Shown in pieces: positions 378 to 37,298 of a DNA stretch of 37,298 nt (position 1 is the stretch's first letter; each line of letters starts with the position of its first letter). The DNA lies in the IMG/VR virus record IMGVR_UViG_3300030095_004454, positions 1 through 37,298 of that record. One strand, given 5' to 3'. A program made the translations under genes and the position numbers. The notes under the pieces are model-generated. The model did not search any database. It saw only the letters and a list, made by a program, of their open reading frames with translations, and was not told the DNA's origin. The DNA comes from a virus. Its lineage: Duplodnaviria; Caudoviricetes.

Positions 378-427
378 AGCATGGTAAAGGTTCGATTCCT
401 TTATCATGCTCTGTCGCATGGTGCGAC
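378..427 (+). ncRNA. tRNA-minihelix-like T-loop hairpin plus second hairpin in 5' UTR
   Basis: 13-bp stem 378-390/398-410 (one G-U) closing loop TTCGATT; then GTCGCA-TGG-TGCGAC 413-427. Confidence 0.65.
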
Positions 428-458
428 TAATCTCAACAAAATAAATGGAGGTAAACTT

Positions 459-899
459 ATGTTTACAGTTAATGTTAAAAATGAAATGTCGGATAAGACA
501 CTTTGTAACATCATACAGATTGCCATTGAAGGTGGTATCAATTATTGGTGTAGGTCAGTAATTGTCTGGGATAATGATAATCAATTCAGACCCCCTAATC
601 TACCAGAGCATTGTATGGATGATTTTATCAAAGAAAAACTCACATCAAATATATTCAATTTTGATAAGTGGGAAGACGCTGATTATGATAAATATTGTCT
701 TAGGTTTATATTATCTGAACCTTTTGAAAATGGGCAATTAGAATACGATATAAACTATCATGACTTAGTTGATGCTGTAGAAACATGGATGAATGATAAC
801 AAATTCGTTTCACTTGGAGTTGATGGCGATAATCTGGATGCCGGTGATTGTGATTCAATAGTGCAAATTGCTTTGTTTGGAAAGGTGGTGTTTGGATAA
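459..899 (+). CDS. hypothetical early phage protein (start reassigned from 381)
   Basis: AATGGAGGT RBS 444-452 precedes in-frame ATG 459; motifs EGGINYW and DSIVQIALFGKVVFG. Confidence 0.75.
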   Translation: MFTVNVKNEMSDKTLCNIIQIAIEGGINYWCRSVIVWDNDNQFRPPNLPEHCMDDFIKEKLTSNIFNFDKWEDADYDKYCLRFILSEPFENGQLEYDINYHDLVDAVETWMNDNKFVSLGVDGDNLDAGDCDSIVQIALFGKVVFG

Positions 900-1662: not shown

Positions 1663-1844
1663 ACGAATACAGAACAAGACAGAAGTACATTGAAGAAGAG
1701 ATTGATAATGTAGTTTCAATTAGGGCAAACATTACAGAGCAAGATTACTTGCAACTGAAATCCAATGCCATGTTAAAAGGACTAACACTACAGCAATACT
1801 TTGGACAAGTGTTACGGAAAGTCGCTACGAAGAAGAGTAAATAG
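1659..1844 (+). CDS. ribbon-helix-helix-like DNA-binding protein
   Basis: beta strand VSIRANI then helices QDYLQLKSNAMLKG and TLQQYFGQVLR. Confidence 0.5.
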   Translation: MNEYRTRQKYIEEEIDNVVSIRANITEQDYLQLKSNAMLKGLTLQQYFGQVLRKVATKKSK

Positions 1845-1852
1845 AGGAGGTT

Positions 1853-7788: not shown

Positions 7789-7825
7789 TACTTTTAATTA
7801 GAATCGTTATAAATGGAGGTCTATA

Positions 7826-8614
7826 ATGGGAACAGACTTAGGAAATATGATAAGAGTTTTTAGAGAGTCTAAAGATTTGAGTCGAAAAGAGTTTTGTAAA
7901 GTAGTTGGTATAAGTACAAGTGGGTTAGCTTATTACGAGAAGGGTGATAGAGAACCATCGGGTAAGGTATTACATAAAATCAGAGAAGGGTTTAGTTTAC
8001 CAAATACATTTTTTACAAAAGAATCAGAGGGAGATATTAAAGGAGAACAATCAATGAATACACAGTTATATGAAGACCATATAAAATTACAAAAACGAGA
8101 AATAAGCAGATTGGAAACGGATATAGATCAGTTACAAGCGACATTGGAAAAATTGGATAAAAAAGAGCCAGAAGAGCATGTTTGGAATGAACTAAATTTT
8201 CATTTTATGGCAGACGTGGAGTTGCATTGGGACGCTTTTGGATTAAATATTGGTAGAACTATTACTAATGTTACCAATATTGAAAAACAATCTGAAATAT
8301 TAGGATATTCTACAAGCAAACTAGAACAGCTTTGGGATGTTGGAGTAAAACACAGAACGATGGACGACCATCCAATAAATTCAATATTACATCCTGAAAC
8401 AATTGAAAATATCAATAAGATTGCAATGTCTTTACCGGCCATGTTTGAAATGGTCAAAAAAATAGTTGGTAATTATTATATACCGAGCAAACTATTATAT
8501 GAGTGTAAGGATGGTTCTTTTATTGGAGGAATATCTTATAATAAAATTATTTGGAGCGAAAAGAAGGTTCGTTCTAAGGTGGAATATATAATCGAAACCG
8601 ATTTTAATCAGTAA
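7826..8614 (+). CDS. XRE-HTH repressor with coiled coil and PAS-like C-terminal domain
   Basis: LSRKEFCKVVGISTSGLAYYEKGDREP HTH; EILGYS, LHPE, KDGS motifs. Confidence 0.75.
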   Translation: MGTDLGNMIRVFRESKDLSRKEFCKVVGISTSGLAYYEKGDREPSGKVLHKIREGFSLPNTFFTKESEGDIKGEQSMNTQLYEDHIKLQKREISRLETDIDQLQATLEKLDKKEPEEHVWNELNFHFMADVELHWDAFGLNIGRTITNVTNIEKQSEILGYSTSKLEQLWDVGVKHRTMDDHPINSILHPETIENINKIAMSLPAMFEMVKKIVGNYYIPSKLLYECKDGSFIGGISYNKIIWSEKKVRSKVEYIIETDFNQ

Positions 8615-8630
8615 AGAGAGGAGGTATTTA

Positions 8631-9581
8631 ATGTATGGATTATATCAAAAACCTTCTGGAGTTTATTATTATTCAAAAGGAAGTGGGAAAAATCGTATAA
8701 GAAAATCTTGTCAAACTAAAGAAAAAAGAATTGCTAAAAAAAGAGCTAAAGAGTTTGATGAACTATATTGGAATTCAAAGGGTGTAATTAGAACAAAACT
8801 TAGCGTCTTAATAAAAGAGTATAAGGCGACAGTAGAACATTTAAAAGATGCTCGAGCTAATAAGCGTCATGTTGATAACTTTTTTAAGTGGCTTAAATCT
8901 GACCCAGATATAGATGAATTAAGACCAAGTGTATTTGACGACTATAAAAATTATCTGTTAACTGAGCTTAAACCAAAGGTCAACACCCCAAAGACAGCTC
9001 GTAATAAATTAATGGTATTAAATACGATGATGGATTATGCATACCATACAAAAGAGTATATAAATAGGAATCCGGTTAAAGGTATCAAGATGCCGTCAAA
9101 AAACGCAACAAACCCCAGAAGGCCAGTTCCTATTGAGGACATTAAAAAAGCGATAGCTGTAACCAATAATAGAAAAGATAAAATACTCTGGAGTTTATTA
9201 CTTTATACAAGTCTTCGGGTAAATCAAGCTAGTAACCTTACACCTAATCAAGTTAAGCAAGGTATTATTCAAGCAAAAAGCAACATACCTAAACCAATAC
9301 CCCTTCCAGACCACATACTCGCATTTGGCGATGAAATATATAACATATATCCAAATTCAAATTACTATGGTGATAGTAGAAAAAGGTATCAAAAGATCAT
9401 GAAAAGTTTTGGTTATGATACTGACTTCCATTCAATCCGACATAGTGTTACTACTCACTTAGCTAAATCTGGTATGAGCGAGGCCGATATAAAGAACATC
9501 ACCGGCCATGATTCTAAAGCCGTTAAGACCTATATACACATGGGTACTGATGATTTTGCTAACCTCATTGATAAAATATAG
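8631..9581 (+). CDS. int: tyrosine integrase
   Basis: TSLR, HSIRH, TGH, Y catalytic residues; N-terminal arm-binding-like region; GGAGG RBS. Confidence 0.92.
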   Translation: MYGLYQKPSGVYYYSKGSGKNRIRKSCQTKEKRIAKKRAKEFDELYWNSKGVIRTKLSVLIKEYKATVEHLKDARANKRHVDNFFKWLKSDPDIDELRPSVFDDYKNYLLTELKPKVNTPKTARNKLMVLNTMMDYAYHTKEYINRNPVKGIKMPSKNATNPRRPVPIEDIKKAIAVTNNRKDKILWSLLLYTSLRVNQASNLTPNQVKQGIIQAKSNIPKPIPLPDHILAFGDEIYNIYPNSNYYGDSRKRYQKIMKSFGYDTDFHSIRHSVTTHLAKSGMSEADIKNITGHDSKAVKTYIHMGTDDFANLIDKI

Positions 9582-9760
9582 GGTGACACATTTAAGGGGT
9601 GACAGAATGGTGACACATTATGCACCCAAATAGCATAGAATGAACTACAATGACAGTCTCGTTTTAGAGGGAAAACAAGTAAAAGCCTCGTGGAGAGAGA
9701 GGGATTCGAACCCTTAATGCTCCCTCAGTAAATAATTAAAAGTGACAGATAGGTGACACT
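9581..9760. mobile_element. attP with tRNA-Ser 3'-end core and arm-type repeats
   Basis: Core 9692-9714 reads AGGGTTCGAATCCCTCTCTCTCC on - strand; GTGACA at 9583, 9599, 9610, 9742, 9753. Confidence 0.85.
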
Positions 9761-9769
9761 AGTTGCGTC

Positions 9770-9830
9770 CTAATAATAAAAAAACCCTCAATAAATGGAG
9801 GTTACCAAATTTCGAGGGTTTTATTATTAG
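9770..9830. terminator. bidirectional terminator-like hairpin with anti-RBS loop on - strand
   Basis: CTAATAATAAAA(AAA)CCCTC / GAGGGTTTTATTATTAG arms; 24-nt loop. Confidence 0.75.
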
Positions 9831-9881
9831 CATTACTGCTATTCTCAACCCTTTAATATAAGTTAAACTACGGCATAAGAA

Positions 9882-10277
9882 CTAATCAATTCTTTCTATA
9901 TGAACTAAATCCATAAAGGTTTGATCGGTGATATTTCCATCGCTATCCCAATCAGCTCCAGACCTAATTTTTATATCCATCATGTGAGCAATGCCTCTTA
10001 ACATACCAGCCATATAATAGTGACGCTTTATACCCATTTTAGATTTCATATCAATCGGGTAGGGCGATAGATCAAGTGCATCGCCAGTAAGATGCTTTGA
10101 CTTCATTGTTTTAGATGCACCGGTCTTTACATAGTCTCTTTGTTTTTCGATAGAACGTACACCTTCAATAATGGATATATCCATTAAATGAAGACATTCC
10201 TCTACTACCTTAACTAAATCGGGATGAACACCCTTGAGTCTTCTTCGAGAGCGTTTCCCAAATTTGTACTTAGCCAC
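9882..10277 (-). CDS. endolysin, M15 family peptidase
   Basis: LKGVHPDL, EGVRS, SKH..GDALD, DLVHIE. Confidence 0.9.
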   Translation of the reverse strand: MAKYKFGKRSRRRLKGVHPDLVKVVEECLHLMDISIIEGVRSIEKQRDYVKTGASKTMKSKHLTGDALDLSPYPIDMKSKMGIKRHYYMAGMLRGIAHMMDIKIRSGADWDSDGNITDQTFMDLVHIERID

Positions 10278-23773: not shown

Positions 23774-26261
23774 TCTCCATTCTGTTTATTTTTACATCAT
23801 TAGCTGATGCACTTGTTGATAGTTTAATCATAAGCTGATTACATCTTATTGGTACTTTTATCTCAGCTTGTTTTTTCGATGATGTAAATGTTGAATTATC
23901 TGTATAAACAGCGGTTGATGAGTCACCATCTTTATAAAAAGTAGCTGTAATTGTATCACCACTATCATAACTCAGATTAAATCTTCTTAATTGAATATCA
24001 TATTGGTCTGAAAGACTTGAAAAATTAATCCAACCAGTAGTTCTTAAAGTTTGTAAGGTCGCAGATGATGTTGAATCATCTAATTTGACAATCGAAGCCT
24101 CAGTAACCCCATTATTATTCACAGAACTGAGTACATTAATATCCTTATCTAAAAAGATAAATTTTCCAGTATTGTTACCAGAAAAATCATTTTTAAACTT
24201 TGACCATGTTGCTGTATCTAAATTGTATTCCCATAATCCAGCATTAGTAACTGCACTACCTAATTCACCAATTAGACAAGATATTGAATTTCTTTTTGAA
24301 TTATATACAAATGTACTCGCTTTTTTATAAGCGGATGAAAACCCTTGCCAAATATCTTTAATAGCTTCACCAATGGCTATTATCTTCCAATCATTTGTTA
24401 GTTGGTAAATATTATGTTCCCCAGCAAAAAATAAGCTCGTTTTTGTACGAACAACAGAATAAGGAGCAATACAACCAATATTCTCCTCAGACTCTACCAA
24501 AGACCACATTTTAGGGTCATTTGAAGGTATATATAGCTGATATATTCCATTTTCCATTAATACAGCTAAACTATCACCTATTTTTTTTAAAGCGACAATA
24601 CCACCACCTTGCTTGTCTTTTATCTGTATATAGTTTGATATTGGATGGATATCCGGTTGGTTAAGGTCGCTATAAACTAAAAAGTTTGAATGGTCTTCTG
24701 CGTCTTCGTCTGGGTCTAGCCTCACATTTCCATAAAATCTTCTAGCACCAACATCCTCAGAAACAATATGCCTTAATGACAGTTTATCCTCATTAACACT
24801 ATGCGGTGTTTGATCAATAAGCCCATCATCGTATAATGTAACTTTAACGACACCAGTATTTGCGGTGTAACCTACATGGTAGTTATTAAAAACAACTTCA
24901 ATATTTTCAGCGGTATTAGCAGTACCCATCGACTTTGACATCTTCAAGGCATTGGTATCATTATCTATAATAGATGCGAATTCACCACTAGCTCTTTTAA
25001 TTATAAATGAATCGTATTCAGATTTCTTTGTAAAAGCACCCGGTTTATATAAAACATTTTCACCAGTATATCCACCGGTTTGATTTGCATTAAAATAGCC
25101 AACTATCTGTTGCCCAGCCTGATCTTCGTTATAGTTTATTTGAAATTCAGCGTTCATTAAATCAAGACCGGTAATATTTCCACCAGTAACCTTTAAATAT
25201 TGTTTACTATTATTAGAATCTGTACCAAACCAAACATTAGTACTAATCTCTGATATATCCGTTCCATTAACTAAATATGAGCCATCTGGATTATATAAAA
25301 TTAATTTGGGAGTATAGTTTGAAGATTGACCCATCAGCGTATTAAAGTCAGTAGCGTTAGTTATTGGATTTCCATTCATGTAAAAACGCTGATAGCATGG
25401 AGTAACAGTATTAATTGTTTCTTGAGTATTTGTAGTTGATTTTGTATTAAGCGTAGCCGAAGATACTTTGTAATATGATTTTGTAGCAGAAGTGCTATCC
25501 GCTATTGCCCGATATATATTAACTCCGGTCAATCTTTTATTCATATCGTTAACAAGCATATTTAATTCAAATAAGACAGCCTTATCTGCCCCAATAAGGT
25601 TTTTAAATATATTGTTATCATTATCGTTAAACTTATATTCTTGATTTCCATCAAATATCGGCACAGCCTTATAAAAATAATATTTAGTAGCATCTATAGT
25701 AGAACTTTCTCGAGCTACTGTATCAATAGCATAAGTCCATGTAGCTGGATAACTTGGTTCTTGACGATCAATTACAACATAATCATCATCAGAATTTCCA
25801 GTTGAGTAAGGATTGTATGTACCTCCAAACCACTTTCTATCCTTTAAAAATTGTATAATCTGGGAGTCCTCATTCAATCCCATAGCTAAACGAACTTCCT
25901 CACCCACTTGCTCAATGCGTATGTCGTCCGGCTGAGTACCGGTAAAAGTTTTTAAGAGCAGTATATTTGCAAAATCATGGTCAGCAAACCAAATCTTCTT
26001 TGGAGTTTTTTCATAAAATATCCAACCATACCCCTCTTCTAGTTTTGGGTGTGTCCATTGAATAGCTTGTTCTATATTGAAAGGATTACCGCCATTTGAT
26101 GCGGTCAAGTCTTTTACAACAGTATGCCCATCTTGCTTAATAAGCCTACCGCTAACATCGGTTTTGAAGTTAAGCATATTGATACAAGCGTTATTCGATA
26201 TATCTTCCGGGTCAGCATTCGTTACAATCCCTCCATTAAAATTTCCAATAGGTATAATCAT
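23757..26261 (-). CDS. tail nozzle/packaged-DNA stabilisation protein
   Basis: FNGG..N..P start, YSDLNQP, NIGCIAPYSV beta-propeller motifs. Confidence 0.7.
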   Translation of the reverse strand: MIIPIGNFNGGIVTNADPEDISNNACINMLNFKTDVSGRLIKQDGHTVVKDLTASNGGNPFNIEQAIQWTHPKLEEGYGWIFYEKTPKKIWFADHDFANILLLKTFTGTQPDDIRIEQVGEEVRLAMGLNEDSQIIQFLKDRKWFGGTYNPYSTGNSDDDYVVIDRQEPSYPATWTYAIDTVARESSTIDATKYYFYKAVPIFDGNQEYKFNDNDNNIFKNLIGADKAVLFELNMLVNDMNKRLTGVNIYRAIADSTSATKSYYKVSSATLNTKSTTNTQETINTVTPCYQRFYMNGNPITNATDFNTLMGQSSNYTPKLILYNPDGSYLVNGTDISEISTNVWFGTDSNNSKQYLKVTGGNITGLDLMNAEFQINYNEDQAGQQIVGYFNANQTGGYTGENVLYKPGAFTKKSEYDSFIIKRASGEFASIIDNDTNALKMSKSMGTANTAENIEVVFNNYHVGYTANTGVVKVTLYDDGLIDQTPHSVNEDKLSLRHIVSEDVGARRFYGNVRLDPDEDAEDHSNFLVYSDLNQPDIHPISNYIQIKDKQGGGIVALKKIGDSLAVLMENGIYQLYIPSNDPKMWSLVESEENIGCIAPYSVVRTKTSLFFAGEHNIYQLTNDWKIIAIGEAIKDIWQGFSSAYKKASTFVYNSKRNSISCLIGELGSAVTNAGLWEYNLDTATWSKFKNDFSGNNTGKFIFLDKDINVLSSVNNNGVTEASIVKLDDSTSSATLQTLRTTGWINFSSLSDQYDIQLRRFNLSYDSGDTITATFYKDGDSSTAVYTDNSTFTSSKKQAEIKVPIRCNQLMIKLSTSASANDVKINRMEIEADG

Positions 26262-27196
26262 TAATAGAGTGACCCTCCAGATAGGTCTGTAACAGTCATA
26301 GTCATATTACTAGAACCCTTACCAACATGAGTTTCTTTAGCTTTTTCTCTATTTGCATAATATCTATTTAAGTAGATAGTTGCTCTTTGTTGGTCGCCTA
26401 CATCCTCTGCCATCATTGCCTTTGCATAATCGACTAAGTAATCATGGTAAATAGAATCAATTATCGGAGATTGACCAGCTTCTGTAAAATCATATATAGC
26501 ACCAATCACCTTCGCTTTTGCACCCAACCCATAATCATCCCAACTAGCAAATAAAGTGTCAAATGAACCTAGTGATGTTGTCCACATACCAACCTCATTA
26601 TTATTAGTGTATATATCTTCAGCTTGTTGAAAAGTCCCAGAAACAGAAGAAAGAACCAATGTCCCACTACTCTCATCTGATTCATCATGCTCAATTATAG
26701 CAGTAGCATTTGAAGTTTTACCCTTGATTTGATCGCCATCTCTAAACATTCCAGATGTTAATGTGTTATACTGTAATTTTTTGTAAGCGGTTTCACTTTC
26801 CTCTACATTATGAGGAATAGCTGAATATCTAAAATGTATCTTTCCGTCTACTTGCGGTTTAGGATATAAAGCTAAATTATTGTTTTCTATAAAGTAATGT
26901 GACGGCTTTCCCTGAAGTAATGTATTAGATGCATTTCTTCTAGGGTATTGATTGTTAAACTGATCTAAAACCAGACCATCATATTCAACATTCCATTTTA
27001 ATTCTATAAAATCATCTGGTAGTTTGTTCTTAACAACACCACCTTCTGCGTATATAAGTCTTTCCCTCTCGTAACATTTAGTATATAAAGAAAAATCTCT
27101 TTCTGCCTCAACTAAATATTTCTTTGCTTTTTTCCTATGTATCATGTCACTACCAAATGGTAGGACAGCTTTATCTACTAATATTGACCACTTCAT
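26261..27196 (-). CDS. head-tail adaptor-like protein with inserted domain
   Basis: LPDDF, GKPSHY, LYPKP, YHDYLVDYA. Confidence 0.65.
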   Translation of the reverse strand: MKWSILVDKAVLPFGSDMIHRKKAKKYLVEAERDFSLYTKCYERERLIYAEGGVVKNKLPDDFIELKWNVEYDGLVLDQFNNQYPRRNASNTLLQGKPSHYFIENNNLALYPKPQVDGKIHFRYSAIPHNVEESETAYKKLQYNTLTSGMFRDGDQIKGKTSNATAIIEHDESDESSGTLVLSSVSGTFQQAEDIYTNNNEVGMWTTSLGSFDTLFASWDDYGLGAKAKVIGAIYDFTEAGQSPIIDSIYHDYLVDYAKAMMAEDVGDQQRATIYLNRYYANREKAKETHVGKGSSNMTMTVTDLSGGSLY

Positions 27197-27846
27197 GCTG
27201 TATATGCGTTAATTATGTCCATAGCGTTTGAGTACGCTAAATTGGCTCGTTCCATTCTATTGTCTGATTTCCAACAGATATACTCAGCAAAATCAACTAT
27301 CGCATAATGCAAGGCACTATTTAATTCGTGAGTAGTATCATCGGCTGAAATAGCTGTAGGCTCTTTTAAATAATAAACTGTTACATTAGCTGAAGGTGTA
27401 GGATTCAAATGAATTGTCGTCCCAAGTCGATGAAAGTACCCCAGTTTATCTGTAGCACTTGGAGCTAAAAAAGAATTCTCTATTCTTTCTAAATCGCTTA
27501 ACTCTATCTCATGCCATATTATAGCGTTAGAACCTTGAACGATACGCATAATAGCATTGCGAAATGGTTTAGCACCAAGTTTTTCAACTGAACTGGCAGA
27601 TTCAAATACAAAACTACTCTTATATGAACCGCTCACATTCATATCTATCTCAGTAGAAGTCGTTAACTCCGTTATTAAAGAAGGAGGTACGATACTACAA
27701 ACACGAGAAAGCCCATCATTTAGGGCTTTTAATTTGTCAGCAGAAGAAAAAATATCTTCGTTTGGGTCTTCCAATCTGAACTTTAGTTCAGCTAACATTT
27801 CATTAGGCGATAAGCCTATTGTATTTGAGCTGTTTTCTTCAGCCAT
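27193..27846 (-). CDS. head-tail adaptor-like protein
   Basis: LKALNDG, VYYLKEP, LHYAIVDFA. Confidence 0.65.
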   Translation of the reverse strand: MAEENSSNTIGLSPNEMLAELKFRLEDPNEDIFSSADKLKALNDGLSRVCSIVPPSLITELTTSTEIDMNVSGSYKSSFVFESASSVEKLGAKPFRNAIMRIVQGSNAIIWHEIELSDLERIENSFLAPSATDKLGYFHRLGTTIHLNPTPSANVTVYYLKEPTAISADDTTHELNSALHYAIVDFAEYICWKSDNRMERANLAYSNAMDIINAYTA

Positions 27847-27865
27847 TTATTAATTCCTTAATATA

Positions 27866-27887
27866 CCCCCGGGCAGAAAACCGGGGG
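27866..27887 (-). terminator. GC hairpin after capsid genes
   Basis: CCCCCGG-N8-CCGGGGG. Confidence 0.55.
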
Positions 27888-27908
27888 CAAGTTTTTGATT
27901 TACTTTAC

Positions 27909-28292
27909 TTAGTGAAGTACTAGTTTACCAGCACCAGTACAAGTACCGATTGCATCAGCACCATTACTAGCGGATAAAGCACCAGATGTTAAAACACCGG
28001 CATTACTAACAGCGGTAACTACTTGTCCAGCAGTACCACCACTAACAGCAGTAGCTTCACCTCTTACTGTAACCCATCCATAAACTGTATCAGCAATCGC
28101 TTCTTCTGCGATGCCGTATTTACCCGGCATTGAAGTTGTAGCAACTGCGTGTACCTTACATACCCACTCAGAACCATCAGCACTTAATGCCAATGCGACT
28201 GGGTATCCAGCGGTAACAGCTCCACTAGCCTTTGCCCAAACTTTTTGTTGGGCTGTAGGGTCACCAGCAGATTTACCAAAAGGCATACTCAT
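27909..28292 (-). CDS. capsid decoration/cement protein
   Basis: A/G-rich, GIAEEAIA, YGWVTVRG; follows major capsid gene. Confidence 0.65.
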   Translation of the reverse strand: MSMPFGKSAGDPTAQQKVWAKASGAVTAGYPVALALSADGSEWVCKVHAVATTSMPGKYGIAEEAIADTVYGWVTVRGEATAVSGGTAGQVVTAVSNAGVLTSGALSASNGADAIGTCTGAGKLVLH

Positions 28293-28303
28293 ATCAGCAA
28301 CTC

Positions 28304-29281
28304 CTAATAAGACTCAGCAAGATCGTCAATTAGACCTTGCCTTGAAGGGTTTGAGCAAGTTAAAGCACCTAACCAAAGAATTTTTGCAATTCTTGCGTCT
28401 TGGTTAACCGGTTTCTGAAAACCTTCAAAAGTAAAATCTCTTTTTCTGTGATGACGAAAACCTAAGTAATTCTCATTCAAGAAATACATTTGTCCGGGTG
28501 GACAATGTTCGTCTACAAAAACTGGGATTCCACGATATTTAAGTTCCATAAAACCAGCGTCACCAACACCAGCAGTTGAACCAGCAAACCTTTTCTGGTC
28601 AGAAAGAGCTTCTTCAAGAGCATCAAAAATAATCTGTGTTGTCACGATCATTGTTGGTGAATCAGAGCCTTTGGTCAATGAACCAAATGCCCTTCTCATT
28701 TCACTTTCAATAATAGTAACAGTTTGAGCATAACTAGCTACATCAGTTACGGCAGAATTACTCCCAGCGTCCCTTATATAACCACCATCCCACCAAGGAT
28801 AATCAGTACTATTGATTCCCCCAAGTGTGCGGTCTACTTTGATTAAATGTTGAAGTCCTACGAATTTGCCATCAGACCCAGTACCAGTACCATAAAGCGT
28901 GTCACCAAAAAGTTCTTTTAATCCAACTTCCATGTTCTTCACTTTAGCTTCTAGTAGGTCGATAACTCTCTCTTTACCATCATTCAAGGCTTCTTCTTTA
29001 CCACTTATAGTGATTGTACCATAGGCTTGTACCCAATCGTACTGAGCATCCGTAAAAACTTCAGTTGGAGATGTATCAAGTACATCATATCCAGAATAGA
29101 AGCCTTTAGCTGTTTGCCTAGCATATTCGACTGGTTGTAAGACTTTGTTACCACCGGCAGTAGCTTTAGAAGCACCGAGAAGTCTATGAGTTAACACATT
29201 AGATTTCTTAATGTTGTCAACCATATTAGGTATATACTGATCTTTAGTTAGTGCAGATAAATTATCATAATTTAGAGCCAT
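28304..29281 (-). CDS. major capsid protein
   Basis: 325 aa after scaffold; ISGKEE..N.G, GLQ, DAGF..L.YRG.PV..D..CP. Confidence 0.88.
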   Translation of the reverse strand: MALNYDNLSALTKDQYIPNMVDNIKKSNVLTHRLLGASKATAGGNKVLQPVEYARQTAKGFYSGYDVLDTSPTEVFTDAQYDWVQAYGTITISGKEEALNDGKERVIDLLEAKVKNMEVGLKELFGDTLYGTGTGSDGKFVGLQHLIKVDRTLGGINSTDYPWWDGGYIRDAGSNSAVTDVASYAQTVTIIESEMRRAFGSLTKGSDSPTMIVTTQIIFDALEEALSDQKRFAGSTAGVGDAGFMELKYRGIPVFVDEHCPPGQMYFLNENYLGFRHHRKRDFTFEGFQKPVNQDARIAKILWLGALTCSNPSRQGLIDDLAESY

Positions 29282-29292
29282 TTATCTTTTCC

Positions 29293-30186
29293 TTACTTAA
29301 AAACATTATATTTATCAAAAGCTAATTCCCTCGCCTCATTATAATTTTCCGCTTTCTTGATTTTAACCTCGTGATCACCACGAGCTTTTCCATCAGACTC
29401 CGGAATAGATTTAAGTTCTTTAGCTTCTGTTTCTAATTTCATTGCCTTTAATACTGAACTTTCTGAAGACCCAGAATTCGATGCCAAAGTAAATGCATCC
29501 TCTAAGTTGGGAATATTACGCTCGATTGCTGTATTAATTACTTCTGCTACAGCATCCGGACGCTCACCCAATTCGGGGTGTTCGTTGATTAGCTGGGCGA
29601 TTTCAGCGTCAACCGCCTTCTGCACTTCCATTTGAGCGATTCGATCCTCTAGTTGAGTAACACGATCATCCGATTTAGTGTTTACCTCTTCTTCTGGTTC
29701 ATTCTTATTAGACACTTCAATAGTTTCATTTAGCGACTGTAATATTGGATGGTCATCCCCAAGCACATCTTTCAATGTATTTATTGTGTCTTCATCATTA
29801 ACAACAGCGTTTATATTATCAATTTTAGCTTTGAGAGCTTTCCGTTCATCTGATAAAGATTGTGCTTTTTGTGTATTTGATGATTGCCATTCCTTTTTAT
29901 TCCTAGAGTCTTCCATCGCCTCCCTTATTTGTTCGACACTATAAACTTCTCCATCGAGAGTTAGTTCATTCAAATGTTGAGGCTCTGGTTGTTCTTCTAT
30001 TGAAGGTTGCTGTTCAGAATTCTCTGGTTGCTCCTCGGAGGGAGTCGCAGATTGTTCTTCGGTAGTTGACTCACCGACGGCTTCCGTTGTGGTGTCAGAA
30101 GTTTCATCCGCTGTAAACAACGAATCAGCCACTTCGCCCGACACTTCCACACCATAAGTTCCACCTATTATATTTTCTGAAGACAT
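29293..30186 (-). CDS. scaffolding protein
   Basis: Acidic disordered N-terminus, LDGE, TQKAQSLS..RK, coiled coil. Confidence 0.75.
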   Translation of the reverse strand: MSSENIIGGTYGVEVSGEVADSLFTADETSDTTTEAVGESTTEEQSATPSEEQPENSEQQPSIEEQPEPQHLNELTLDGEVYSVEQIREAMEDSRNKKEWQSSNTQKAQSLSDERKALKAKIDNINAVVNDEDTINTLKDVLGDDHPILQSLNETIEVSNKNEPEEEVNTKSDDRVTQLEDRIAQMEVQKAVDAEIAQLINEHPELGERPDAVAEVINTAIERNIPNLEDAFTLASNSGSSESSVLKAMKLETEAKELKSIPESDGKARGDHEVKIKKAENYNEARELAFDKYNVFK

Positions 30187-34282: not shown

Positions 34283-34364
34283 TAGAAACCAACATTATTA
34301 TAATGTAAATAGTTAGTAAGATGCATATATATACCGCTATAGCTGTTAGTTCGTGTTTTTTCAT
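34275..34364 (-). CDS. possible 29-aa single-TM peptide
   Basis: MKKHELTAIAVYICILLTIYIIIMLVSNG overlapping next start; weak RBS. Confidence 0.35.
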   Translation of the reverse strand: MKKHELTAIAVYICILLTIYIIIMLVSNG

Positions 34365-34723
34365 AGTGTCAATTAGTGATAAAAGTTAAGCAAAAACTCT
34401 GCCTGAAAAAATTAATACCTTACCATGAATGAAATGACCGGTACAATTCCGATCATGGGGGTGGGGGTCTTCGTCTATATATATTGTTCGTGAACGTCTT
34501 TTATCTTATGCGTAATGGCACTATTATGTCACCTTTTCTACTTTCTCCCTCGGTACATCGAGGGTTCTAAACCCTCAATGATATACTTCCACCCTCGGCA
34601 TAGCCTCGAGCGTTAACAAATCTAAAATAGTTGGGAGTTTGTGCGGTTTAAAATGGTGACTTTTGACGCTCAATTTTACACACTTTGCCACACTAAATAA
34701 AATTATTTTACTGTCGTGAACTA

Positions 34724-34773
34724 CCACTAATTACTAAATACTTCTTGCATCAATTGCTACAAATGTGTAGTAT
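34724..34773 (+). promoter_or_regulatory. early sigma70-type promoter with upstream candidate operator
   Basis: TTGCAT(34745)-17-TAGTAT(34768); CCACTAATTAC at 34724-34734. Confidence 0.65.
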
Positions 34774-34817
34774 GTGGCATTAGTTTTATTGCTTTTTCTC
34801 AATTTATGATTTCTTAA

Positions 34818-35080
34818 CGGCCTCCGAGCTAGTCGCCATGACGGGGTTGGAAATCTGAAGGCGTCCCGAGGGACAGCGTCTAAAAACTCTAAGCAGTCGA
34901 GCCGACTAATACTATCAATAAGCAAACAACGACACACCAACCGCAGAGCGTATATAAACGACACGAACAACAAAGCCTATAAATAAAAGCACGAAGACGA
35001 ACCGCCCGACTGAAGCAGAGTATAAAAAATACCTCCTCCATTTATGAGAGGCGACCCGGGACGCTTTCCCCTTTCCCGGG
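34818..35080 (+). ncRNA. structured leader/ncRNA of unknown class
   Basis: GC-richer non-coding tract with several local and long-range helices. Confidence 0.55.
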
Positions 35081-35114
35081 AAAATTTATTTTACTAACTA
35101 ATGGAGGTTATCAA

Positions 35115-35339
35115 ATGAAAGCTATATTAAAAATCGAAGAAGATTTCTTTACAGTAGTGGCTTATTGGTCTTATGAATTGCAAGAATATAAAATCGTTAT
35201 TAGGTACTATAACGAAGACCGGAAAAAATACAAGACCGAAGAATGCTTCGAGACAGAAAAAGAACCGGCACAAGATACAGCGTACGCAATTTATAACAGC
35301 TTAAAAAACAAGAGTTGCTCAGAGCTTAAAAGATTATAG
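35115..35339 (+). CDS. early hypothetical protein
   Basis: GGAGGT RBS, 74 aa. Confidence 0.75.
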   Translation: MKAILKIEEDFFTVVAYWSYELQEYKIVIRYYNEDRKKYKTEECFETEKEPAQDTAYAIYNSLKNKSCSELKRL

Positions 35340-35435
35340 AAAAATATAAATCTATGATCTATTGATAAAAACCCTAGCCCCGAGGGTAAACGGGGCAAGA
35401 ATTTTAATAAAAAACCAAATAATGGAGGTTATCAA

Positions 35436-35615
35436 GTGGATAAGGAAATAAAAGCACTCTGGGACTACTTAATAGAAACGCAACTAGTGACAGCAGACGA
35501 AGTTCGACTAGTTACGGCTATTAATGGGACGAACTTAGAATCGTTTGAAGACATGCTATATGTTAGAACCGGATACAGAGATTTAGAACAAATCTTAGAA
35601 GCTGAAGCTGAATAA
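35436..35615 (+). CDS. 59-aa early protein (not in ORF track)
   Basis: GTG start after GGAGGT; MDKEIKALWDYLIET...LYVRTGYRDLEQ. Confidence 0.8.
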   Translation: MDKEIKALWDYLIETQLVTADEVRLVTAINGTNLESFEDMLYVRTGYRDLEQILEAEAE

Positions 35616-35686
35616 AAAGACCTAGCCGGGAGGCTAATAAAACCCGGCAAAATTTTTCTCAATAAAAACAAAATGGAGGTTATACA

Positions 35687-36130
35687 ATGTCAACAAGAGC
35701 AAATATCGCTGTAGAAGGAACAGAAATAAAAATATATAAGCATTCAGACGGCTACCCGGAATATATGATTCCTAGATTAATCAAGATTGCTGATAAATTT
35801 TTAGAGAATAGAGGGAACGACCCCCACTATCTCCCGGCCTATATTCTTAGGGAATTTAAGATAATAGAAGAAGAAGAATCTAAAGACTGGTACACAGACT
35901 ACAAAGACCCTATCAAATCAAAAGACAGAAATGATTGTCTAGGTTGGGGAATTCAAACTGACTTCAGCGAAGATATTGATTTTATGTATAAGGTTAATTT
36001 AACAGAAGATAATCATTTCATAAATGTCTATAGGATTTATGGGGATTTTAATGATCATATTTTAAGTCGTTTTAAAGTAATAGATACTATTGATTTAAAC
36101 ATGAAGGAATATGATTATAAACTAGATTAA
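35687..36130 (+). CDS. early hypothetical protein with YxHxDGYP motif
   Basis: MSTRANI...IYKHSDGYPEY; strong RBS. Confidence 0.8.
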   Translation: MSTRANIAVEGTEIKIYKHSDGYPEYMIPRLIKIADKFLENRGNDPHYLPAYILREFKIIEEEESKDWYTDYKDPIKSKDRNDCLGWGIQTDFSEDIDFMYKVNLTEDNHFINVYRIYGDFNDHILSRFKVIDTIDLNMKEYDYKLD

Positions 36131-36199
36131 CAAAACCAGACCCGCTCGGGGGCAAATAATACCGAGCAAAATTTTTCTTAACTAATGGAGGTAATAATC

Positions 36200-36523
36200 A
36201 TGTTTAACAATCAAGTAATAACAGTTAGAACGCCCAACAGAGACGGACTTTGTGGAGTCTATACGGATTGGCTAGAGTTCTCTGAGGACTTAGACAAATT
36301 CCACTCTAAAATAAAAAATAGTATGGATGATTTTATTAAAAATTCTAAATATTTGAAGGATGGTGATATAATCTTGCCAACGCCGTCAATACTAAGAAGA
36401 AGAGTCACAAATGGATTACTAGCAGATGGCTTTGCAAGTGTTCCTATTGAGGATGCAGAAGGCGAATTCTATTTAGAAATTGAATTATGGGATAAAAATA
36501 GTTCTAGGTACTTTACAGAATAG
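36200..36523 (+). CDS. early hypothetical protein (start reassigned from 36185)
   Basis: ATG 36185 is part of the RBS motif; in-frame ATG 36200. Confidence 0.75.
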   Translation: MFNNQVITVRTPNRDGLCGVYTDWLEFSEDLDKFHSKIKNSMDDFIKNSKYLKDGDIILPTPSILRRRVTNGLLADGFASVPIEDAEGEFYLEIELWDKNSSRYFTE

Positions 36524-36596
36524 TTAACAAACCACGACCCAACCCGGGGGCGAACAATACCGGGAAAGATTTTTCTTAAACAATGGAGGTAATAAC

Positions 36597-36824
36597 ATGA
36601 AAACATACGATGTAGTCGTTTATGAAACTGTGAAAAAAGTAATCGAAGTAAAAGCTAAATCAAACGAAGATGCTGAAGATTATTTTTATCATGAATGGGA
36701 AAAAGGTTACCCAGATAATCATAAACTTGTAAGAAAGCAAGTAGTTGATTATGAAACAATAAGTGTCAATATAACCCCTCCCGGTATTCTCCGTAGAAGA
36801 AAGGAAAGGCGGTTAAAACTATAA
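36597..36824 (+). CDS. DpnD/PcfM-like small protein
   Basis: KTYDVVVYET..KVIEVKAKSNEDA. Confidence 0.6.
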   Translation: MKTYDVVVYETVKKVIEVKAKSNEDAEDYFYHEWEKGYPDNHKLVRKQVVDYETISVNITPPGILRRRKERRLKL

Positions 36825-36895
36825 CCACAACCCTACCCGGGAGGGTAAACCCGGGAAAGATTTTTCTCAATAAAAAAACAAATGGAGGTAATACA

Positions 36896-37075
36896 ATGGA
36901 AACGAATAGTATCTATGAAGTATATCTAAAGATAGTTCCAGAGAAGGGACACAAAAAGACCCTTGATTTTATACTAGATGTTTTAACTATGGGATTTAGT
37001 GCATCATGGGATGATGACCAACGCAAAACCCAAATTAAAATATTAGAAAATAAAATAAATGAGGTAATACAATGA
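36896..37075 (+). CDS. 59-aa early protein (not in ORF track)
   Basis: ATG after GGAGGT; METNSIYEVYLKIV... Confidence 0.7.
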   Translation: METNSIYEVYLKIVPEKGHKKTLDFILDVLTMGFSASWDDDQRKTQIKILENKINEVIQ

Positions 37076-37298
37076 AAATAGTAGAGCTAAAACTGAATAA
37101 AGGTATTGATATTACGGCTAGGGAATTCGACAAGATAACCGGAGAGCCGATTTATAGAATACTTGGAAGCGGTCGAAGTGTTGCTGATACTGTAATAAAA
37201 TTGGATTTATATGGTGATGGTGTATTTGATATAAAATTTCGAGTACATGATGCTTTTATTGAACAAGATTATAAAATGTATTATAACAGAATTAGCAA
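37072..37298 (+). CDS. 3'-truncated early protein
   Basis: GAGGT RBS, ATGA overlap, open to window end. Confidence 0.65.
   Translation, partial: MKIVELKLNKGIDITAREFDKITGEPIYRILGSGRSVADTVIKLDLYGDGVFDIKFRVHDAFIEQDYKMYYNRIS

Follow-up and report, generated by a model that had tools for sequence, protein, structure and literature searches.

A predicted two-site antisense RNA in a temperate phage and the repeated early-gene leaders it may address

Several described RNAs come close to the element considered here, a predicted antisense RNA on the minus strand of a temperate phage genome (IMG/VR virus record IMGVR_UViG_3300030095_004454, 96% complete; its full 37,298 nucleotides [nt] are called the window below). 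One of them is C4 of phages P1 and P7 (RF01695), in which, as related second-hand in PMC5320573, one segment covers the ribosome-binding site (RBS) and the other binds upstream for specificity. The predicted RNA is likewise phage-encoded and about 75 nt long, has two segments directed at the RBS and at an upstream site (here by complementarity only), and may likewise serve lysogeny or immunity. By the account in PMC5320573, C4 folds into three stem-loops and is released by RNase P from a longer transcript, whereas the predicted RNA begins with a free 5′ tail, forms two hairpins, and carries a terminator of its own; unlike C4, it is also encoded some 12 kb or more away from its targets, between the lysis gene and attP, and would face 7 to 12 targets of one standard design. 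The C4 Rfam model (RF01695) gave no match at its gathering threshold and was absent among the 15 Rfam matches at E ≤ 10 over positions 9600-9950. The element would work like P1 C4 but, with neither the Rfam match nor the three-stem-loop fold, is not a member of the C4 family.

CI of phage P4 is also a small antisense RNA with two complementary sites and silences lytic genes in the lysogen, as described in PMC4825925. It is processed from the transcript that it controls and causes termination, whereas the predicted RNA is encoded apart from its targets and would cover the Shine-Dalgarno (SD) sequence; CI lies within the controlled transcript, between its two targets, whereas our element is on the strand opposite its targets. 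OppZ and CisR, small RNAs (sRNAs) derived from 3′ untranslated regions (UTRs; PMC13501541), share a terminator with the 3′ end of an mRNA and pair near an RBS, as the predicted RNA would, and the phage sRNAs lambda OOP, PreS, StxS, and VpdS (bioRxiv 10.1101/2024.10.31.621285), which also pair near an RBS, are likewise comparable. According to these sources, such RNAs are made from an internal promoter or by cleavage, and none of the six is described there as addressing repeated, standardized phage leaders via two sites.

On the side of the targets, the PeSL of T4-type phages are repeated stem-loops with an SD sequence between variable small early genes, allowing gene shuffling (PMC2839356), much like the leaders described below. 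As that paper describes them, each PeSL holds a sigma70 promoter, whereas ours consist of pseudoknots or T-loop hairpins served by a single upstream promoter; its main text never uses the term “antisense.” The SAS of Cluster K mycobacteriophages resemble our leaders in being an over-conserved, asymmetric RBS class on nonstructural genes (PMC3203893). That report leaves the partner, RNA or protein, open, and describes four genomes with one opposite-strand copy away from gene starts; within its account no partner RNA is identified, and the extended element is a DNA-like inverted repeat and not a pseudoknot. STAXI, pseudoknots that recur in mobile DNA and sometimes lie close to c4 RNAs (PMC2864571), are arranged there in tandem, whereas here there is one pseudoknot per gene. 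The leader pseudoknots matched neither the STAXI model nor any other in Rfam at E ≤ 10, and they are not in tandem. A full-text literature search, with subscription papers mostly outside its reach, found no phage RNA that addresses a repeated leader class via two sites. The PeSL of T4-type phages are reportedly also treated in PMC4122927.

Going by sequence, we consider it probable that this phage encodes a trans-acting sRNA that blocks translation of interchangeable early cassettes by pairing with two sites in their leaders. A first-pass annotation had proposed a trans-acting minus-strand RNA whose terminator loop silences early genes and the repressor. The early leaders gain as targets from conservation, strand asymmetry, and a second complementary segment, whereas the case for the repressor is weak. 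The earlier proposal had missed that second pairing segment and the 5′ extension of the element to 9849.

A conserved minus-strand element and its putative RNA

The element lies between the lysis gene and the attachment site, on the strand opposite its predicted targets. It is a real structured RNA element, conserved and unlisted, and the evidence supports a putative minus-strand RNA running from about 9849 to 9777, with the following parts.

9777..9849, minus strand: predicted 73-nt sRNA (approximate 5′ end), comprising 5′ tail, small hairpin, terminator with anti-RBS loop, and U-tract
9842..9849, minus strand: 5′ tail GUUGAGAA, unpaired, which complements the TTCTYAAY box in the early leaders
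9828..9841, minus strand: hairpin 1, with 5 bp in the window and L044 and 7 bp, one of them G-U, in the G002/G004 lineage
9778..9818, minus strand: intrinsic-terminator-like hairpin, with stem 9818-9812 paired to 9791-9785, 20-nt loop 9811-9792, and U7 tract 9784-9778
9794..9802, minus strand: anti-RBS loop core ACCUCCAUU, partly held in a UGG/CCA mini-stem
9855..9860, minus strand: TATATT, 5 nt upstream of the tail, a sigma70 −10-like hexamer or AU-rich cleavage site

Folding of a 131-nt region gave a z score of −3.65, with 0 of 200 shuffles as good, and all five variants folded contain the tail, one small hairpin, and the terminator. The tail costs only 0.01 to 0.28 kcal/mol to open. The terminator loop described in the first-pass annotation is present, but it is not fully open, since an invariant UGG/CCA mini-stem, with an opening cost of 4.9 to 6.0 kcal/mol, masks part of it and leaves UAACCU exposed. 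The terminator is the first such hairpin past the endolysin stop codon, with no other terminator-like site in between, and the stop codon lies 32 nt upstream of the tail in all nine sources listed. The element thus overlaps the 3′ UTR of the late mRNA and shares its terminator, as 3′-UTR-derived sRNAs do. As for an internal 5′ end, TATATT fits a −10 hexamer and also RN/WUU, the RNase E consensus. A ATGCCGTA-like motif lies upstream of TATATT (9872-9878, minus strand); it is found inverted to the left of the att core in G002 and L044 and is absent in G001.

Pattern scans for relatives returned three viral matches, all beside an identical att core, and 17 metagenome matches, of which nine had that core; the eight without it were discarded as chance, as was L085. 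A covariance model run over 53 sources gave 13 matches of at least 53.8 bits, all at this position and without a paralogue. In an alignment of eight loci (omitting the duplicates L050, L051, and L052, the truncated L056, and the remnant L040), invariant columns make up 8/8 of the tail, 15/16 of the loop core, and 6/6 of TATATT. The corresponding fractions are 1/5 in the 5-nt gap between hexamer and tail, 4/21 in the upstream spacer, 22/63 in the att arm, and 37/129 at endolysin third positions. The sole change in the loop core, A to G in L044 and L040, keeps pairing with the target U. The window and G001 are identical over 9777-9849 and 24% identical in the adjoining spacer. Hairpin 1 is retained despite changes in sequence and length, and the loop is unchanged where integrase arm-type repeats shift from GTGACA to CGGACA or CTGACA. 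The eight loci fall into three RNA lineages, and the terminator stem contains a single G-U in every intact lineage, placed at a different pair each time; these would be A-C on the plus strand, so they favor the minus strand.

Early-cassette leaders and their predicted pairing

The predicted targets precede small unknown genes in a plus-strand block that begins at 35115 and runs on at the window start to 1844, a continuity also present in G001. In the window, G001, G002, G004, and L071 we recognized 44 repeated leaders, each with a pseudoknot or T-loop hairpin, then a U-rich box, then an RBS of the form AATGGAGGT; they precede 7 to 12 variable early genes per operon, with different cargo behind like leaders. 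The seven in the window are as follows.

35048..35117, plus strand: leader 1, H-type pseudoknot (35048-35080), degenerate box, RBS, start 35115
35371..35438, plus strand: leader 2, pseudoknot (35371-35396), degenerate box, RBS, GTG start 35436
35618..35689, plus strand: leader 3, pseudoknot (35618-35648), box 35656-35663, RBS, start 35687
36139..36202, plus strand: leader 4, pseudoknot (36139-36167), box 36175-36182, RBS, start 36200
36535..36599, plus strand: leader 5, pseudoknot (36535-36566), box TTCTTAAA, RBS, start 36597
36830..36898, plus strand: leader 6, pseudoknot (36830-36855), box 36864-36871, RBS, start 36896
378..461, plus strand: leader 7, 13-bp hairpin whose loop resembles a tRNA T-loop, then a small hairpin, box 430-437, RBS, start 459

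All four loop pairings of the first-pass annotation were recovered exactly: 9794-9810 pairs over 17 nt with 35100-35116 (one G-U) and with 35421-35437 (two G-U), over 13 nt with 440-452, and over 12 nt with the repressor RBS at 7809-7820. The 17-nt run is limited to two of the seven leaders, and the common core is 9 to 13 nt. The window holds nine copies of AATGGAGGT, all on the plus strand and none on the minus strand (0.36 expected from shuffles); eight are RBSs at gene starts, and the ninth is the terminator loop. More fully, the loop is complementary to the RBS form AATGGAGGT(T/A)A. When CCUCC was held fixed and its flanks were shuffled, only 9 of 1,500 variants paired as well with 41 unique RBS regions, so the match exceeds plain SD consensus, which the earlier annotation had named as a partial explanation. 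The annotation also proposed that the RNA accounts for the uniformity of the RBSs; repeated cassettes exchanging cargo genes, for which PeSL, as described in PMC2839356, are a precedent, account for this uniformity no less well.

The second contact is that of the tail with the box. Over 30 unique leader regions, GUUGAGAA ranks 4th among 65,536 8-mers by complementarity, a rank with an estimated chance of ~0.004 (66 8-mers in the RNA, uniform model), and its duplex energy was equaled by 17 of 1,500 random 8-mers. Its ranks in the individual genomes are 29, 3, 6, 3, and 4. L071 served as a held-out test: with its search-pattern matches (3 of 12 leaders) set aside, the tail still ranks 4th over the remaining nine. 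In the 38 of 41 leaders with the motif, the box positions facing the three G residues of the tail are C or T in 111 of 114 cases.

When both contacts are summed, the seven cassette starts rank 1 to 7 among 53 window gene starts, although the loop term is partly circular and some starts, taken from the open reading frame (ORF) list, may be misplaced. The tail term alone, which is not circular, separates cassette starts from the others (−6.5 versus −3.0 kcal/mol; P = 0.003). The repressor comes 8th, at −18.2 versus −19.0 for the weakest cassette. Its leader has no box, and only the ATGGAGGT core is kept in relatives. Net energies in repressor leaders, opening included, are −3.5 to −5.5 kcal/mol for the loop and 0 to −2.2 kcal/mol for the tail, and the repressor is probably not a main target.

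A number of observations weigh against two-site silencing. The conservation comprises just three RNA lineages, with endolysins 80 to 98% identical; stem changes are one-sided, with no pair changed on both sides; and the L040 remnant, in which tail and hexamer are lost, shows an A-C on the minus strand. No −35 element or full promoter was found upstream of TATATT. On the side of the targets, the position before GGAGG, at which the loop requires U, is A or C in 8 of 42 leaders, GGAGGT is followed by A in 10 of 42, and a loop-only genome scan places two sites away from gene starts, 7425 and 4305, above five of the seven leaders. The box is exact in four of the seven window leaders and not enriched genome-wide (30 versus 26 expected); leaders 1 and 2, the best partners of the loop, are poor partners of the tail; C/T variation is the commonest mutation anyway; and since the leaders are related copies, box counts are not independent. 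Compensation between tail and loop strengths was not significant (rho = −0.18, P = 0.25, n = 44). Nor is there a cognate preference: pairing with the two leader sets is equal for the window RNA and the G002 RNA, and the search for covariation suggested earlier found no compensatory RNA-target change. Covariation is thereby removed as evidence, and the lack of preference is also what family-wide cross-silencing would predict. GGAGGTCA, which fits the GGUGACC loop present in L044 and L040, stands in three of the 12 L071 leaders; L071 and L044 do not overlap and could not be linked.

The leaders are structured in their own right. All six window leaders between 35048 and 36898 form an H-type pseudoknot with an S2 stem of 5 to 7 bp and an S1 stem of 4 to 6 bp; sequence changes keep both stems, and pseudoknots occur likewise in G001, G002, G004, and L071. 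Over 36 unique pairs, cognate S1 partners score 11.1 against 6.3 ± 0.45 for swapped partners (0 of 5,000 as high), a score biased upward since cognate S1 pairing was optimized. The search chose a wrong stem for two L071 leaders and none for two leaders of the T-loop type. The pseudoknot could be a 5′ stabilizer, a processing signal, or a protein site, with the T4 gene 32 operator as a comparison. Hairpins resembling the tRNA T-loop also precede cassette genes at about 2870-2900 in G001 and at 24690-28500 in G006, as at 378-410 in the window; these are possible RNase P or RNase Z processing sites. Most G006 cassettes are of this T-loop type, with a AAACACAC box and an AAGGAG RBS.

The following features surround the leaders.

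34745..34773, plus strand: candidate sigma70 promoter for the cassette operon, TTGCAT-17-TAGTAT (in G002, G004, and L071, TTGACA-17-TAATTT)
35031..35043, plus strand: second conserved anti-SD segment, ACCTCCTC, at the front of leader 1, conserved in all four records with the region
1844..1851, plus strand: conserved GAGGAGGT without a gene, immediately ahead of the early-operon terminator and complementary to 35031-35038

A candidate sigma70 promoter lies upstream of the cassettes in all four records examined. Promoter-like sites in 34300-37298 number 8, with 11.3 expected, and none falls within the six pseudoknot leaders. About 140 nt of the early leader (window 34880-35025) are absent in G002, G004, and L007. 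The copy of GAGGAGGT at the operon end is kept in the window, G001, G002, G004, L071, L047, L050, L052, and L054; 5′-3′ pairing with 35031-35043, or a decoy, is possible. The front segment also competes with pseudoknot stem 1. The integrase RBS was rejected as its target, the match being present in the window and L051 and absent in seven other sources.

G006 and G007 (terminase 62 to 63% identical) carry another leader class, with the AAACACAC box and AAGGAG, on contigs without the lysis, att, and integrase regions where a matching RNA was expected. The covariance model matched none of five distant records. A G006 hairpin at 29758-29790 has a plus-strand loop that is the complement of that phage's leader box. 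It was not counted as a matching RNA, since on the minus strand it is the RBS hairpin of a small gene.

Genomic setting and alternative explanations

The late operon runs on the minus strand from 34282 to 9882, terminase through endolysin; integrase and repressor occupy 7826-9581 on the plus strand, and the replication block is on the minus strand. The neighbors of the element are as follows.

9882..10277, minus strand: endolysin, last gene of the late operon (phrog_465, E 1e-37)
8631..9581, plus strand: integrase (phrog_1, E 1e-35)
7809..8614, plus strand: repressor-like helix-turn-helix gene with its RBS, a weak predicted target without a box
9691..9714, no strand assigned: attP core that corresponds to the 3′ end of a tRNA (by eye, of tRNA-Ser type), flanked on either side by GTGACA arm-type repeats
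9809..9856, plus strand: 15-codon frame from ATT, rejected as a gene and lost in relatives

Among relatives the arm-type repeats vary (GTGACA, CGGACA, CTGACA; window 9582-9760 and relatives) and integrase N termini differ, with the att core identical. Tara labels on relatives point to a marine habitat. The att core of L040 is joined to nonphage DNA, a host junction; positions 1-300 of that source are a prophage remnant that keeps the att core, right arm, and terminator, and are a lead to the host. In L040 a glycine-rich gene stands in place of tail, hexamer, and lysis gene. A search of genome contigs with an integrase profile confirmed none of 111 stretches as a relative, and the att-core pattern had 14 genome matches, 11 of them titled Bacteroidota, with the L040 flank in none. 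TTGACA-type promoters and SD use fit a Bacteroidota host badly. Among cultured phages, none exceeds 33% (capsid) or 38% (terminase) identity.

The alternative that survives best, itself unlikely, is that the element is a mere late-operon terminator, perhaps bidirectional, and that its matches are functionless remnants of leader copies moved by recombination. The leaders are repeated and shuffled, the plus strand of the element reads CTCAATAAATGGAGGTTA, like leaders 3 and 6, and the L040 remnant keeps the terminator alone. Yet box and RBS stand in reverse order relative to a leader, and the unpaired loop and tail do not vary, in contrast to stems, spacer, and synonymous sites; a terminator needs no 20-nt loop, upstream hairpin, or tail.

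We give almost the same low weight to the possibility that the RNA pairs as predicted and acts on transcription or processing, its tail covering the U-rich run after the leader hairpin and altering attenuation, polarity, or cleavage of the early transcript in the manner of P4 CI, which causes termination by two-site pairing as described in PMC4825925. The box is a U-run directly after a GC-rich stem, leader 6 is terminator-like on the plus strand, and the T-loop hairpins of leader 7 and the G006 cassettes could be processing sites. However, the longer and stronger contact covers the SD itself, and just one of six pseudoknot leaders scores as a plus-strand terminator via its S2 stem.

It is less probable still that both motifs are bound by a protein of phage or host, on DNA or plus-strand RNA, with the attP-side copy as operator or decoy. 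All nine AATGGAGGT copies share one orientation, arm-type sites are nearby, and the account of the similar mycobacteriophage SAS repeats leaves open whether these are RNA or protein sites (PMC3203893). Against this, the stem wobbles favor the minus strand, the box falls beyond the U-run on the plus strand, the loop stays constant though arm repeats change, and no operator common to the immunity gap and the early promoter rises above the null.

A general anti-SD inhibitor of host mRNAs late in infection is suggested by CCUCC in the loop and seems to us very improbable. The loop follows phage-specific departures from the SD (−16.4 versus −11.2 kcal/mol for a generic anti-SD 15-mer), its core CC is masked by the mini-stem, and the tail matches the phage box.

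A 15-residue hydrophobic, type I toxin-like peptide read from ATT on the plus strand, with the minus strand as antitoxin, can practically be dismissed: ATT stands at the standard 7-nt spacing (the earlier annotation had seen no suitably spaced start) and both changes relative to G001 are synonymous, but the start is lost to AAC and the frame shifted in G002, G004, L047, L052, and L054, and L044 has a 1-nt insertion, so that no conserved small hydrophobic ORF lies opposite the RNA, a type I toxin-antitoxin pair is largely refuted, and the earlier conclusion that this RBS copy serves no gene stands.

Proposed action and its meaning

The anatomy of the element, its conservation and complementarity, and the recurrence of a like leader before different cargo genes can be read from the DNA itself; translational silencing by a discrete RNA of ~73 nt would follow from them in this way. 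Chances are about even that the RNA starts from its own −10, in which case it would exist late and in the prophage alike. Processing out of the lysis mRNA's 3′ UTR is the main alternative origin, somewhat less probable, and late read-through would yield the same sequence under either. The tail and the UAACCU of the loop would seed contact, after which the mini-stem would open and the SD would be covered. Box and RBS follow each other in the target in an order parallel to that of tail and loop in the RNA; since the 5′ end of the RNA is free, the two helices could nonetheless stack end to end as a nicked duplex, by a geometric argument and not a computed one. Action on host SD sequences would be limited by the masked loop and the need for a second site. 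Once infection or induction sets off strong early transcription, at 7 to 12 sites per operon, the RNA would be titrated away and a threshold switch would result. No operator shared by immunity gap and early promoter rose above the null in any of three cases, which leaves room for RNA action in the prophage without demonstrating it.

More tentatively, the phage may possess an RNA-only, plug-and-play regulon, in which a gene recombining into the early array would acquire the standard two-part address, and one prophage RNA would silence the whole address class, including early cassettes of heteroimmune relatives. We infer recombination between leader elements from the exchange of cargo. Because RNA and address are common to lineages with differing repressors and integrase arm sites, a lysogen would mute the cassettes of heteroimmune relatives; if true, this would be a family-wide, repressor-independent superinfection control.

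Phage early regions are rich in small unknown genes behind near-identical start signals, PeSL and SAS among them. For one such class, a candidate partner, two recognition segments, and 44 target leaders are now defined to the base, so that a two-plasmid reporter test with compensatory changes is possible with no need to grow phage or host. Taken by themselves, the pseudoknot leaders form a repeated RNA motif that is unlisted. If the proposed silencing is true, a temperate phage can swap accessory genes freely under one switch, and an RNA route to cross-immunity is suggested.
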